A DNA stretch of 64,000 nt from Candidatus Binatia bacterium (GCA_963666515.2 OY762897.2:288001-352000), one strand, 5' to 3'. Counted from the first letter of the stretch, positions 50,775 to 55,062 are shown. The notes: a model not told the origin generated them from the letters alone. Numbers and translations: made by a program.

Positions 50775-52286
50775 ATGGCCCAAGTCCTTGTCACCTGGAT
50801 CGGGCACACCGATCTTCGCGCCCCCGAAGAAGAGGCCGACATCGGCATCGGACCCGTAGCTCAGGCCCTGTCGGAGCGAAGTTTCGACCGCGCGTTTCTC
50901 ATCACCGACCACGGACACGACGCCGTTCGCTCATACAGGAAATGGCTCCGGGAACGCGCTGGAGGCGCCGATCTCCACTGGCTGCACGAGACGCTCACCG
51001 GCCCCACGGAGTTCGGTGAGATTTACGTGGCCGCGGTGCGCGCCTGTGAGCTGGCTCTCGCGGACGGGATGGGGGACACGACCCTTTCGTTTCATCTGAG
51101 CCCCGGCACCCCGGCCATGGCCGCGGTGTGGATCATTCTTTCCAAGACGCGCTTTCCCGCCGAATTGATCGAGTCTTCCAGGCAGCACGGCGTCCGTACG
51201 GCCTCGGTCCCGTTCGACATGTCCGCCGACTTCCTGCCCGATCTGTTGCGCCGGCCGGACGAGGAACTCGAACGGCTCAGTGCCGGCCTGGCTCCGGCCG
51301 CGCCGGAATTCGATGAGATCGTGCACCGGGGCCGGGCGATGACACGGCTCATCGTCCGAGCGCGCCGCGTGGCTCCCCGTTCGGTTCCGGTGCTGATCGA
51401 GGGCGAGACCGGCACCGGCAAGGAACTGCTGGCCCGCGCCATACACCGCGCCAGCCCCCGGCGCGACAAGCCGTTCGTGGCGGTCAACTGCGGCGCCATC
51501 CCGTCCGAGCTGGTGGAGTCGGAGCTGTTCGGACACGAGAAGGGAGCCTTCACCGGCGCTATGAACCGCCGCGAGGGCCACTTCGTGGAGGCCGAAGGGG
51601 GCTCGCTGTTTCTCGACGAGGTGGGAGAGCTGACCAAGTCGACGCAGGTGAAGCTGCTTCGAGCGCTCCAGGAAGGAGAAGTCGTGCCCGTGGGGAGATC
51701 CGGCAGCCGCAAGGTGGACGTGCGGTTGATCGCCGCCACCAACCGGCCGCTCCTGTCCGAGGTGGTGACGGGCGCCTTTCGCGAGGACCTCTTCCATCGG
51801 ATCGCGGTGGCGGTGCTCCGGCTGCCGCCGCTCCGGGACCGGGGTGAGGACCTCTCGCTGCTGGTCGATCATCTGCTTGCGCTCGTGAACCGTGAAGGCG
51901 TGGAGCAGCCCGGCTACGTAGAGAAGAAACTTTCTGTCACTGCAAGAAAGCTTCTGGACCGACATCCGTGGCCCGGCAACGTTCGCGAGCTTCAGAACAC
52001 CCTGCGCCGGGCGTGCGTCTGGACACCCGGCCCCGTGCTCAAGGCCGAGGATATTCGTGACGCGCTCCTGCCCACGGACGGGCGAACCGGGGAGGCCGAG
52101 GTCCTCGGGAAGCCGCTGGGAGAGGGTTTCGATCTGCCGGAAGTATTGGCCGGAGTGGCGCGACACTACCTGCAGCGCGCAATGGACGAGGCCCAGGGCA
52201 ACAAGACCCAGGCCGCCCAACTCGTGGGTCTGCCCAGCTATCAGACCTTCACCAACTGGACGAAGCGTTACAGGGTGCGCGCATGA
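50775..52286 (+). CDS. sigma54-dependent activator with RtcR-like CARF N-terminal domain
   Basis: N-terminal VTWIGHTD...FHLSPGTPAMAAVW; GETGTGKE, ESELFGHEKGAFTGA, LFLDEVG, WPGNVREL; Fis-type HTH GNKTQAAQLVG. Confidence 0.88.
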   Translation: MAQVLVTWIGHTDLRAPEEEADIGIGPVAQALSERSFDRAFLITDHGHDAVRSYRKWLRERAGGADLHWLHETLTGPTEFGEIYVAAVRACELALADGMGDTTLSFHLSPGTPAMAAVWIILSKTRFPAELIESSRQHGVRTASVPFDMSADFLPDLLRRPDEELERLSAGLAPAAPEFDEIVHRGRAMTRLIVRARRVAPRSVPVLIEGETGTGKELLARAIHRASPRRDKPFVAVNCGAIPSELVESELFGHEKGAFTGAMNRREGHFVEAEGGSLFLDEVGELTKSTQVKLLRALQEGEVVPVGRSGSRKVDVRLIAATNRPLLSEVVTGAFREDLFHRIAVAVLRLPPLRDRGEDLSLLVDHLLALVNREGVEQPGYVEKKLSVTARKLLDRHPWPGNVRELQNTLRRACVWTPGPVLKAEDIRDALLPTDGRTGEAEVLGKPLGEGFDLPEVLAGVARHYLQRAMDEAQGNKTQAAQLVGLPSYQTFTNWTKRYRVRA

Positions 52287-52301
52287 TGGCACGGTGCTTG
52301 C
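52287..52301 (+). promoter_or_regulatory. sigma54 -24/-12 promoter for hsdR
   Basis: TGGCACG-GTGC-TTGC matches TGGCACG-N4-TTGC; begins at the base after the activator stop and lies about 35 nt before the hsdR start. Confidence 0.85.
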
Positions 52302-52335
52302 CTCTAACAATGGTACTGTGGACGAGGAGGATCGG

Positions 52336-55062
52336 GTGAGCCCGCGTGAGAGCGAGGCGGATGCGCGAATCGTCATCGACGAGTTGCTGAGGCAGGCAGG
52401 CTGGGACCCCGCGGACAAGTCGATGGTGGGCACCGAGGTGCCGTCGTCGCAATCGTCCGAGGCCATCGAGCTTGTGGACCGCTCCCGTGCACGGCCTTTC
52501 GAGATGCATGCCCCTGTCTACAATCTCGTGGCGGCGGCCGGGGAGTTCGGCCCGGACATGACCGTGGGAACGACCGCGGAGGAAATCGGCTGGAAAACCG
52601 TCCCCAGCCACGTCCGGCTCACCCGCGACCATTTCGTGGCGCGCGTGGACGGACAGTCCATGGAGCCCACCATCCCCGACCGTTCGTACTGTCTCTTCCG
52701 CACGGACCGGGGAGGGAGCCGCGAAGGCAAGCTCGTCCTCGTCTGGCATCGCGGCTGCTCCGATCCGGGTCTCGGCGGGGAGTTCTCGGTCAAGAAGTAC
52801 ACCAGCGCCAAGGCCGTGGCGCCGGACGGCGACACCTGGAGCCACCGTGAAATCCGGCTGAAGCCGCTCAACCCCGATCCGGCCTACCGCGACCTGGTCT
52901 TCGACCCGGCCGCCGAGGGCGACCTCCGCGTCATCGGCGAGTTCGTCTGCGTCCTGGACACGGCGGAAGGCGCGGAACCCAGACGCGGAAGGGCCGACTA
53001 CGTCCTCTATGACCAGCGCGGACGCCCCTTGGCCGTCATTGAGGCCAAGAAGAACGCCATCAACCCCTACGTCGCCAAGCAACAGGCGCTGCCGTATGCC
53101 AAGGCCCTGGGCGCGCCCTTCATCTTCTTGACCAACGGCGAACTGACCTACTTTTGGGACTACCAGAACGACGACGCCCGCCCCATCGCCGGCTTCTTCT
53201 CCCGCCGCGACCTGGAGCGGATCGTGGAGATGCGGGAACAGCGCAAGCCGCTGGCCACGGTCGATATCCCGGAACACTACATCCGCCAGGGGGAGACCCG
53301 CACGGTGCGGCCGTACCAGGCCGACGCCATGCGCGCCCTCGATCATGCCTTCGAGCTGGGCAAGCGCCGCTTCCTGATCGAGCTTCCGACCGGCACCGGC
53401 AAGACCGACCTCATGTGCCTGTACCTCAAGCGGCTGCTGGACGCCGGCTGGGCCGAGCGAGTCCTCTTCCTGGTAGACCGGGAACAGCTTGCCAAGCAGG
53501 CCATCGAGGCCATCCAGGACATCCTGTCCGCACACTCCAGCTATTGGCTGCGGCCGGGCTCGGCCCGCCAGGAACAGCAGATCACCGTCGCGCTGCTCCA
53601 GACCATGATCGGGCGAGTGGACGAATACACCGCCGGCTACTTCGACGTCGTTATCGCCGACGAGTGCCATCGCTCCATCTACGGCTCCTGGCAGACGGCA
53701 TTGACCCGGTTCGACGCGCTCCACATCGGCCTCACCGCCACGCCGGCGAGCTACATCGAGCGCAACACCTACGACTTCTACCAGTGCGAGCCCGGCAAGC
53801 CCGACGTGTCCTATCCGCTGAAGGAGGCCTTCCGCGACAAGTACCTGGTGCCGTACCGGTTCGCGACGGGCATCACCGAGATCGTGGCGGAAGGGGCCGA
53901 CGTGGACGACGAACACTACGACCCCGCCGAGTTCGAGCGCCGCTGGACCAACGCGGAGACGAACCGCCTGATGATGGAGGAGTTCGATCACCTCGCGTGG
54001 GAAAACTTCAAGGAGCTAGCGCCCGGCCAGGACCCCGGACCCGGCAAGGCCATCGTCTTCGCCATCACCAAGCACCATGCCGCGCGCCTGGCCCAGTACC
54101 TGAACGAGCTTCACCCCGAACACAAGGGCCGGTACGCGGAAGTCATCACCTCCGACGTGGCCGATCCGGACGCCTTGATACGGAAGTTCAAGAGGGAGAC
54201 CTATCCCATGGTGGCGGTCAGCGTTGGCATGCTCGACACTGGCTTCGACTGCCGGGAGGTGCTGCATCTGGTCCTGTGCCGCCGCGTACGGAGCCCCATT
54301 CTCTACCAGCAGATGCGCGGCCGCGGCACCCGCACCGCGCCGCACATCGGCAAGCAGCAGTTCGTGATCTACGACTTCTTCAAGAACCACGAGTACTTCA
54401 ACGACAGCGACGGCGGCGGGGTCACCGGCACGGGAGGCGGACACGCGCCGGACGGCCCCACGACGCCGCCGGAGCCGCCTCCTGCCCTTGTCGAGCTTGG
54501 CCTCGAAGACGAATGGCTCGAAGCCGTCACCTACATCGAGGTCGGTCCCGAGGGCGAGCGCGTCGACAAGAAAGAGTACGTGACCCACTGGGTGGAGACC
54601 ATCCGCTCCCAGGCAGCGGATGATCCGCTGCTCCGCAAGGTGCGGGACGAAGAGCCGCTGGAGCCGGACGAGGAAGAGGAACTCGCGCGGCGCCTCAACC
54701 GGCCCGAGCGCTACTTCAACGAGGACAACCTCCGGCGCGCCTACCGCGACCCGGGAGGCAGCCTCGTGGACTTCATCCGCGCGGCCCTCGGGCGGCTGCA
54801 CATCAAGAGCCGAGAGGAAAAACTGGAAGAGACCTTCCGCGCGTGGCTCGTCGCGCGTTCCCTCACGCCGCAGCAGGCCGAGTACCTCTGTCTGCTGAAG
54901 AACCGCGGCATCGCCACCGGGCGGGTCAGCCTCAGCGACCTCTTCGAGCCGCCGCTGTCGATTCTCGATGCCGCCGGCAAGGGTGTAGAATTGTTCGGGG
55001 AAGAGGGTCTAAAGGAAGTGGTCGCGCGGCTCAATGAAGATGTCTTCAGGGCCGCCGGTTGA
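52336..55062 (+). CDS. hsdR: type I restriction subunit R (EcoEI/EcoAI-like) with inserted S24 peptidase domain
   Basis: EADAR..ID.LL..AGW, GRADYVL...VIEAK, LTNG, PTGTGKT, DECHRS, GLTATP, MLDTGFD, QMRGRGTR; GAGGAGG RBS before GTG 52336. Confidence 0.92.
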   Translation: MSPRESEADARIVIDELLRQAGWDPADKSMVGTEVPSSQSSEAIELVDRSRARPFEMHAPVYNLVAAAGEFGPDMTVGTTAEEIGWKTVPSHVRLTRDHFVARVDGQSMEPTIPDRSYCLFRTDRGGSREGKLVLVWHRGCSDPGLGGEFSVKKYTSAKAVAPDGDTWSHREIRLKPLNPDPAYRDLVFDPAAEGDLRVIGEFVCVLDTAEGAEPRRGRADYVLYDQRGRPLAVIEAKKNAINPYVAKQQALPYAKALGAPFIFLTNGELTYFWDYQNDDARPIAGFFSRRDLERIVEMREQRKPLATVDIPEHYIRQGETRTVRPYQADAMRALDHAFELGKRRFLIELPTGTGKTDLMCLYLKRLLDAGWAERVLFLVDREQLAKQAIEAIQDILSAHSSYWLRPGSARQEQQITVALLQTMIGRVDEYTAGYFDVVIADECHRSIYGSWQTALTRFDALHIGLTATPASYIERNTYDFYQCEPGKPDVSYPLKEAFRDKYLVPYRFATGITEIVAEGADVDDEHYDPAEFERRWTNAETNRLMMEEFDHLAWENFKELAPGQDPGPGKAIVFAITKHHAARLAQYLNELHPEHKGRYAEVITSDVADPDALIRKFKRETYPMVAVSVGMLDTGFDCREVLHLVLCRRVRSPILYQQMRGRGTRTAPHIGKQQFVIYDFFKNHEYFNDSDGGGVTGTGGGHAPDGPTTPPEPPPALVELGLEDEWLEAVTYIEVGPEGERVDKKEYVTHWVETIRSQAADDPLLRKVRDEEPLEPDEEEELARRLNRPERYFNEDNLRRAYRDPGGSLVDFIRAALGRLHIKSREEKLEETFRAWLVARSLTPQQAEYLCLLKNRGIATGRVSLSDLFEPPLSILDAAGKGVELFGEEGLKEVVARLNEDVFRAAG

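Follow-up and report, generated by a model that had tools for sequence, protein, structure and literature searches.

A CARF-type sigma-54 activator and a conserved promoter at its stop codon precede the type I restriction genes of a Candidatus Binatia bacterium

Genes of the locus and the activator protein

A 64,000-nucleotide stretch of the genome of a Candidatus Binatia bacterium (GCA_963666515.2, OY762897.2:288001-352000), hereafter the window, carries on its plus strand a gene for a predicted sigma-54 activator, which is followed by hsdR, hsdM, and hsdS of a type I restriction-modification (R-M) system. The R-M set is complete in one cluster, comprising HsdR (nuclease and superfamily 2 helicase), HsdM (N6-methylase), and HsdS (two target-recognition domains); the score on the EcoAI-family equivalog falls short of the cut-off (258.7 against 550), and no subtype is therefore assigned. 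A -24/-12 element of the sigma-54 type occupies the bases directly after the activator's stop codon, and two pairs of palindromes lie upstream of and within the activator gene. The positions of these features are collected in Table 1.

Table 1. Features of the activator cassette, the restriction operon, and their surroundings (positions in the window).
Feature	Position	Strand	Description
Stem-loop	50690..50728	+	Inverted repeat, 16-nt arms, 94% complementary; 3' of NMT1-type binding-protein gene (P0006, Pfam)
Palindrome U1	50727-50740		ACAAGCATACTTGT; upstream pair, overlaps the activator's sigma-70-like promoter
-35 box, putative	50737-50742		TTGTGC; sigma-70-like promoter of activator, 17-nt spacer
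Palindrome U2	50747-50760		GCAAACTTTCTTGT; upstream pair, as U1
-10 box, putative	50760-50765		TAGTTC; sigma-70-like promoter of activator
Activator gene	50775..52286	+	503-aa open reading frame (P0001); stop TGA 52284-52286
Activator domains			CARF sensor ~residues 1-170; sigma-54 AAA+ 183-347; lid; C-terminal Fis-type HTH ~475-495
Palindrome D1	51922-51935		AGAAGAAACTTTCT; coding-sequence pair, codons K384-L394
Palindrome D2	51942-51955		GCAAGAAAGCTTCT; coding-sequence pair, codons K384-L394
Sigma-54 -24/-12 element	52287-52301	+	TGGCAC-GGTGC-TTGC, TGGCACGGTGCTTGC; exact consensus; first base after activator stop; 35 nt before hsdR
hsdR	52336..55062	+	908 aa, GTG start, Shine-Dalgarno GAGGAGG 52324-52330; HSDR_N, ResIII, Helicase_C, EcoEI_R_C
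hsdM	55073..56722	+	Likely ATG 55073 = residue 14 of the longest reading frame; relatives align from residue 14
hsdS	56719..57954	+	411 aa, two specificity domains; start overlaps hsdM stop
STAND/AAA_16-like NTPase	58039..62565	+	1508 aa; PADLOC candidate PDC-M54A, E 2.6e-20; 85 nt after hsdS
Two ABC-type ATPases (AAA_15/AAA_21), 313-aa gene, HEPN gene	62615..64000 onward	+	Continue beyond the window to C1:355785

A Pfam search of the activator matched Sigma54_activat (PF00158, E = 2.2e-66, residues 183-347) and AAA_lid_14, and the Walker A (GETGTGKE, residues 210-217), GAFTGA (257-262), and Walker B (LFLDEV, 278-283) motifs were all intact. No receiver domain was present among the 11 Pfam families listed for it. 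On the basis of these matches and motif positions, the protein was identified as a sigma-54 enhancer-binding protein without a receiver domain, in agreement with the first-pass annotation of this DNA. Its C-terminal helix-turn-helix (HTH) segment is conserved across the family and gave weak profile matches to the DNA-binding domains of NtrC and Fis (E 0.003-0.005). The PADLOC model PDLC01995 (RtcR_PspF2--CARF_AAA_HTH) aligned over nearly the whole protein (residues 3-501 on profile positions 2-480 of 481) with 635.9 bits, and the sister models RtcR_PspF1 and RtcR scored lower, at 235.2 and 196.3 bits; these models come without a curated cut-off. The RtcR equivalog of NCBIfam (NF038308) was not reached, with 336.2 bits against a cut-off of 650. 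By these profile scores, the activator is a member of the RtcR_PspF2 family and not RtcR proper.

The N-terminal domain was examined with a structure model of residues 1-185, which was predicted from an alignment of 58 family members and had a mean predicted local distance difference test (pLDDT) score of 91.0. It contains six strands (residues 2-8, 39-44, 66-71, 102-107, 129-135, and 139-142), the last two of which are adjacent. The CARF core is described in the relevant section of Makarova 2014 (PMC4012209) as six strands with a hairpin formed by strands 5 and 6. The modelled domain fits this definition, with the adjacent last two strands taken as the hairpin. In the PDB, Foldseek found 52 matches with E <= 0.001, the best at 8.3e-7; all those listed were CARF proteins, including Csm6, Can2, Card1, ring nucleases, Cam1, and Cad1. 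The family-profile search of solved structures found AAA+ and HTH relatives only and none for the N-terminal domain, so that the CARF assignment rests on the predicted fold together with the PADLOC models. At an E threshold of 10, a Pfam search with residues 1-192 alone listed no RtcR-type family, its single match being weak and unrelated (DUF1796, E 0.29). The first-pass annotation had called this N-terminus RtcR-like, pointing to HLSPGTPAM (residues 107-115); the CARF fold is borne out by the model and by Foldseek, and identity with RtcR itself is contradicted by the equivalog score and by the gene content of the genome. The source genome (4.67 Mb, 98.35% complete) gave no match to RtcB (PF01139), with rtcA not searched for. 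It encodes RpoN (TIGR02395, 419 bits against a cut-off of 277), and the CARF domain of the activator occurs in it once. Because the domain is single and RtcB lacking, the adjacent promoter is the obvious target of this activator.

A conserved promoter and two palindrome pairs

The -24/-12 element matches the sigma-54 consensus exactly and is the sole TGGCAC-N5-TTGC match on either strand of the window, where 0.13 is expected; at least one such match occurred in 12 of 100 shuffled windows, and the whole genome holds 10, including this one. With the standard spacing and the C at 52301 taken as -12, the +1 position is predicted near 52313, which stands shortly ahead of the Shine-Dalgarno sequence and GTG codon of hsdR. 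Both the presence of a consensus promoter on the base after the stop codon and its correct placement for the hsdR ribosome-binding site, as first annotated, were upheld. An ATG at 52310 was considered as the start of a conserved upstream reading frame and rejected, as the frame is not kept in relatives.

The locus was compared with 80 loci encoding the N-terminal domain, which are the best 80 of 534 confirmed relatives. A search with the whole protein covered the N-terminus in 2 of 80 loci, generic activators dominating, and the N-terminal-only alignment was used instead. The activator gene is complete in 72 of the 80 and cut off or broken in the others (loci L103, L110, L126, L127, L136, L149, L153, and L160). 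The sample spans Binatia, Acidobacteriota, Myxococcota, Spirochaetia, Gemmatimonadota, Planctomycetota, Latescibacterota, Desulfobacterota, and Gammaproteobacteria, among others. Cultured carriers in it include Myxococcus qinghaiensis QH3KD-4-1 (L128), Corallococcus sp. CA053C (L120), and Peristeroidobacter agariperforans KA5-B (L112). The family itself is large; the N-terminal domain alone retrieved 959 clusters at 50% identity (E <= 0.001), and in a second collection 3101 of 8000 scored candidate clusters reached the same threshold.

A promoter was counted as conserved if it lay within -40 to +60 of the activator stop, agreed with the consensus at 9 or more of the 10 positions, and retained both GG and GC. 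Such a near-consensus GG-N10-GC element was found in 45 of the 72 complete loci, with a TTGA variant of it in 17 more. Background scanning gave 52 such matches in 1,971,800 strand-bases (0.0026 per 100 nt), corresponding to approximately 0.2 expected over 72 stop-codon windows, and the conservation in homologous loci that had been proposed as a check on the promoter thus lies far above chance. The position is kept as well; among the 65 complete loci with a best match of at least 8/10, the element begins exactly on the base after the stop in 47, the remaining starts being at -18, -14, -9, +2, +3, +4, or +16. In this comparative sense, the sigma-54 promoter is real.

The gene following the activator was examined in the same loci. 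hsdR directly follows in at least 46 of the 72; seven loci without a called hsdR reading frame were re-examined by tblastn, which placed hsdR 3' of the activator stop in six and gave a methylase-like match in L116. By class, the next gene encodes a close HsdR relative in 24 loci, a distant HsdR (~1140 aa, with N-terminal DUF4145) in 22, a methylase-specificity-ATPase fusion of ~1300 aa in 12, and other proteins in 14. The near-consensus element was present before close HsdR in 21 of 24, before distant HsdR in 5 (and 14 with TTGA) of 22, before the fusions in 10 (and 2 with TTGA) of 12, and before the others in 9 (and 1 with TTGA) of 14. Between cargo classes, sequence similarity stops just after the -12 element. 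Since the element is kept whatever the cargo and similarity ends just after it, the activator gene and its promoter appear to travel as a unit.

Several of these loci have features of their own. A clade consisting mainly of Myxococcota (L109, L112, L118, L120-L123, L128, L130, L133, L138-L140, L144, and L158) carries TGGCAC-N5-TTGA at +1 after the stop, that is, GA where sigma-54 promoters almost always have GC, and this element precedes the distant 1140-aa HsdR with DUF4145. The methylase fusion cargo (L093-L095, L097, L099, L101, L102, L107, L117, L132, L148, L152, and L161) is ~1240-1370 aa long and consists of an N6-methylase fused to a specificity-like domain and an AAA_16-type ATPase; HsdR is lacking there, and most of these loci have another ATPase (420-560 aa) after the fusion. 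One copy of the cassette is disrupted: in L091 (8643-10361), a DDE transposase gene directly follows the activator gene, and both the usual C-terminal end of the activator and the promoter are absent.

No useful binding sites came out of inverted-repeat and sigma-70/terminator scans restricted to the window; the candidates emerged only by comparison. The relatives share an element upstream of the activator start, AAG-N4-CTTGT-N6-ACAAG-N4-CTTGT, which consists of two 14-bp palindromes with centres 20 bp apart and corresponds to the pair U1-U2 in the window (U). A second pair with the same half-site spacing, D1-D2 (D), lies in the coding sequence. The centre of D is ~374 bp and that of U ~1569 bp upstream of the predicted start site. 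A U-type score of at least 13/20 within 130 nt upstream of the start was found in 64 of 78 loci, as against 2 of 508 random 140-nt windows. When the whole genome was searched with an idealised double palindrome, U was the best match (18/20) and D (15/20) one of only two next-best. When single palindromes were sought by a crude scan over ~1.0 Mb of the loci, 268 matches were obtained, 92 of them between -100 and 0 and 49 between +1100 and +1200 from the activator start, and no other printed 100-nt bin held more than 3. Furthermore, a matrix trained on D alone found U (-45 to -80) as the best match elsewhere on both strands of the ~14.5-kb locus in 42 of 75 loci.

Codon usage was then compared along the gene. 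When the codons of 72 non-identical genes were aligned, the five most deviant columns of the whole gene were residues 386, 387, 390, 391, and 393, all of which lie in D. The codons preferred there are CTT for L386 (46/57), TCT for S387 (57/71), GCA for A390 (63/70), AGA or AGG for R391 (61/63), and CTT for L393 (44/49), and the codon-usage divergence of residues 385-394 averaged 1.31 bits against a gene mean of 0.158. Over the homologous 15 codons, 76 family genes and 68 unrelated sigma-54 activators differed in the use of CTT (52% vs 11%), TCT (51% vs 10%), GCA (47% vs 13%), and AGA plus AGG (77% vs 14%). This excess of rare codons exists despite the higher G+C of the family loci (0.633 vs 0.576 in the unrelated activators). 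The pattern supports D being a DNA element held by strong synonymous-codon constraint and not only a protein motif, and D is likely the candidate enhancer, or upstream activating sequence, of the sigma-54 promoter. It had been proposed that the activator's binding sites must lie within its own 3' coding sequence; this agrees with D, and is incomplete in that the second and better pair, U, was found upstream of the gene.

The pair U overlaps a sigma-70-like promoter of the activator, and 9 nt separate the end of the -10 box from the ATG. There is no visible Shine-Dalgarno sequence in this stretch, and the layout is the same in relatives; the counterpart boxes of L089 are TTGTGT and, after 17 nt, a perfect TATAAT. 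The activator mRNA may thus be leaderless or nearly so. The boxes at 50737-50765 suggest a sigma-70 promoter, and their overlap with U suggests autoregulation.

Proposed regulation of the operon and alternatives

Taken together, we consider it probable that this locus is a sense-and-switch cassette of the RtcR_PspF2 type, placed before a type I R-M operon and possibly a longer defence train, which raises hsdRMS transcription when a signal is received. The activator would be transcribed from its own sigma-70-type promoter and probably limit itself through U. Its HTH would bind both palindrome pairs and assemble on D, the likely enhancer, and possibly also on U. The CARF domain would restrain the AAA+ ring, and on sensing a ligand or partner arising from infection or nucleic-acid damage would release it; the ATPase would then remodel the closed complex of RpoN holoenzyme at 52287-52301, and hsdR-hsdM-hsdS transcription would rise as one transcript. 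Basal methylase, enough for methylation of the chromosome, would probably come from read-through of the activator transcript. The promoter had been described as silent without a signal, which appears too strong; the activator stop and the promoter leave no space for a terminator between them, and since none fits before hsdR, transcripts started at the activator's own promoter can read through and supply basal expression.

This regulatory prediction is well supported by comparison, and several observations weigh against it. The C-terminal HTH is a weak match, as HTH_8 scored 20.9 bits, below the Pfam cut-off of 22. U and D are candidate sites of this HTH, and it is from their co-inheritance with the activator that we infer the binder. 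The usual enhancer distance is roughly -80 to -150, so that D at ~-374 is farther away, and an integration host factor consensus was not found in the window. In 17 of the 72 complete loci, TTGA stands in place of TTGC in an otherwise identical element, giving GA for the canonical GC at -13/-12, and the element is weaker or missing in another 10.

The nature of the signal was considered separately. An RNA end with a 2',3'-cyclic phosphate had been suggested as the ligand from the example of RtcR; as the activator is not RtcR and the genome lacks RtcB, this is an analogy. The sections of Kotta-Loizou 2022 on RtcR report that in vitro the protein is active constitutively when CARF is deleted but not when full-length, and that RtcAB bind the CARF domain and are required for activation. 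Even for RtcR, the papers disagree on the nature of the signal. One variant of the switch proposed here, which differs from it only in the signal, has the CARF domain respond not to a small nucleotide ligand but to a protein partner, possibly a product of the downstream defence genes acting in feedback. The binding of RtcAB to RtcR speaks for such a partner, as does the sequence SPGTPAMAAVW after strand 4, which contains no K or R; according to the part of Makarova 2014 (PMC4012209) on this family, most RtcR proteins have no basic residue following strand 4, where other CARF domains employ one for nucleotides. The cargo types are unrelated, however (HsdR, methylase-ATPase fusions, TPR protein, and others), which makes one conserved cargo partner unlikely, and we regard the variant as possible at a rather low probability. 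Given that one cassette precedes different cargoes, the ligand would be a general signal of infection or damage.

Less probable still is that HsdR alone is gated, with hsdM and hsdS expressed constitutively from an internal promoter, so that the chromosome is always methylated and restriction follows on a signal. This arrangement avoids self-restriction on switching on a silent operon, and the classical EcoKI locus has hsdR and hsdMS on separate promoters. Here, only 10 nt separate the hsdR stop (55062) from the hsdM ATG (55073), with the Shine-Dalgarno-like AGAGGAG between them, and hsdM overlaps hsdS. A sigma-70 consensus scan of 50500-55300, crude and not built for this phylum, gave 0 promoter-like sites, and the sole site in 55000-64000 is within hsdS. 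Neither an internal promoter nor a terminator between hsdR, hsdM, and hsdS was found by the crude sigma-70/terminator scans. As the genes are tightly coupled in this way, the promoter would drive hsdRMS together, and the first reading of the locus, in which HsdR only was gated, was overstated. That the -24/-12 element is unused, hsdRMS being expressed by read-through from the activator promoter and the activator acting elsewhere or being a relic, is highly improbable: no terminator can fit between the activator stop and hsdR and 10 of 72 relatives lack a good element, but the element is conserved on the same base in dozens of loci of many phyla before different cargo, the CARF domain occurs once in a genome with no rtcB, and the genome-wide best palindrome pairs lie in this cassette only.

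The switch proposed here has known counterparts. Tandem dimer-site enhancers and autoregulation at the activator's own promoter are features of NtrC at glnAp2 and PspF at pspA. Compared with these, the present palindromes are likewise whole helical turns apart with one pair on the activator's own promoter, and differ in that the other pair is written into the activator's own coding sequence via synonymous codons, ~374 bp from the promoter. RtcR of E. coli and Salmonella, the activator of rtcBA, has the same CARF-AAA+-HTH order, a sigma-54 target, and a CARF domain that is a negative regulator relieved by a signal. Unlike RtcR, the present activator is below the equivalog cut-off, its genome is without rtcB, and its target lies on the same strand directly against the stop codon, whereas rtcR and rtcBA are divergently oriented.

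RtcR-like activators beside R-M loci had already been noted genomically, as the first-pass annotation pointed out. Makarova 2014 (PMC4012209), in its section on these proteins, linked RtcR-like CARF-NtrC(AAA+)-HTH regulators to R-M systems and predicted that their CARF domains sense infection-made ligands and thereby activate sigma-54 transcription. Those regulators show the same domain order, no rtc linkage, and an R-M neighbour, with no difference in the protein; that section of the account contains neither a promoter abutting the stop codon nor two site pairs, its Supplementary File 4, where associations are listed, lying outside this comparison. RtcR homologues also stand at the head of extended trains of co-directional defence genes, among them type I R-M, Druantia III, and CoCoNuT, for which activation via an upstream activating sequence bound by the HTH was proposed in the part of Bell 2024 (eLife, PMC11090510) on these superoperons. 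In these trains, as described there, an RtcR homologue likewise stands at the 5' end before hsdRMS. The cargo after hsdRMS is different in the present locus, being a STAND-like NTPase, two ABC-type ATPases, a 313-aa protein, and a HEPN protein, and no McrB-type GTPase, McrC-type nuclease, or CoCoNuT helicase was found among the eight downstream genes by Pfam and PADLOC. In a literature search covering neither the supplements of Makarova 2014 nor those of Bell 2024, which may list this locus type, we found no mapping of the promoter, the stop-codon abutment, or the site pairs, and no experimental test of the family; the co-mentions of hsdR and RpoN that were found concerned hsdR only as a strain genotype of E. 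coli. As a prediction, the principle is in print (Makarova 2014; Bell 2024); what is added here is a precise and testable cis-architecture.

We further propose, with moderate confidence, that the activator gene is a portable and self-contained cassette, which combines an autoregulated promoter with its operators, an enhancer in codons 384-394, and a sigma-54 promoter at the stop codon, heads many anti-phage cargoes in many phyla, and in this bacterium makes type I restriction transcriptionally inducible by an infection or damage signal. To our knowledge, little is understood of how restriction enzymes are regulated, apart from the C-protein switches of type II systems, and type I systems are thought to be controlled mainly after translation. 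If true, a ligand-gated sigma-54 switch would make type I restriction an inducible response instead of a constant barrier. The cassette supplies parts for a test, namely a sensor domain, a promoter with a predicted start, and two site pairs, one of which can be destroyed without a protein change. Its ligand would be of interest to the phage-defence field, and the cassette could serve as a compact inducible expression module.

Flanking features and an insert in HsdR

To the left of the cassette, the stem-loop at 50690..50728 is probably the terminator of the upstream gene and would mark the left edge of the cassette. To the right, the 1508-aa NTPase and the ATPase and HEPN genes after it may belong to the same gene train as hsdRMS. 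The ABC-type ATPases resemble PDC-M55A, NsnB, and HEC-03B, and the 313-aa protein is without a family (L082:615-5785, where L082 = window + 62000). The genes past C1:355785 are in the opposite orientation. The G+C content falls from ~0.66 to 0.54-0.58 from hsdS onward, which fits an acquired island; the five genes after hsdS lie at 0.54-0.59.

HsdR itself contains an insert of ~160 aa at residues ~46-208 (52471-52959), which resembles an S24 peptidase module of the LexA/CI type and lies between an N-terminal helix and the nuclease core. Pfam matched Peptidase_S24 here with 28.5 bits (cut-off 23.3), and residues 59-205 matched phrog_4, 'transcriptional repressor', at E 8.6e-14. The three best atlas matches were S24 peptidases (0.88-0.89), which serve as a lead only. 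No LexA-type match for the N-terminal part of HsdR was found by phmmer or by the profile search against solved structures, and a structure model of the N-terminal 260 residues, built from 13 close sequences, reached a pLDDT of only 37.7. An S24-like block is present in 13 of 17 close HsdR relatives, with 4 lacking exactly this block. The block conserves an AAAG stretch, G-x-SMEP, and FSVK(K/R)Y, which we take to be likenesses of the LexA cut site and Ser/Lys dyad. Such an insert may link restriction to a RecA/SOS signal.

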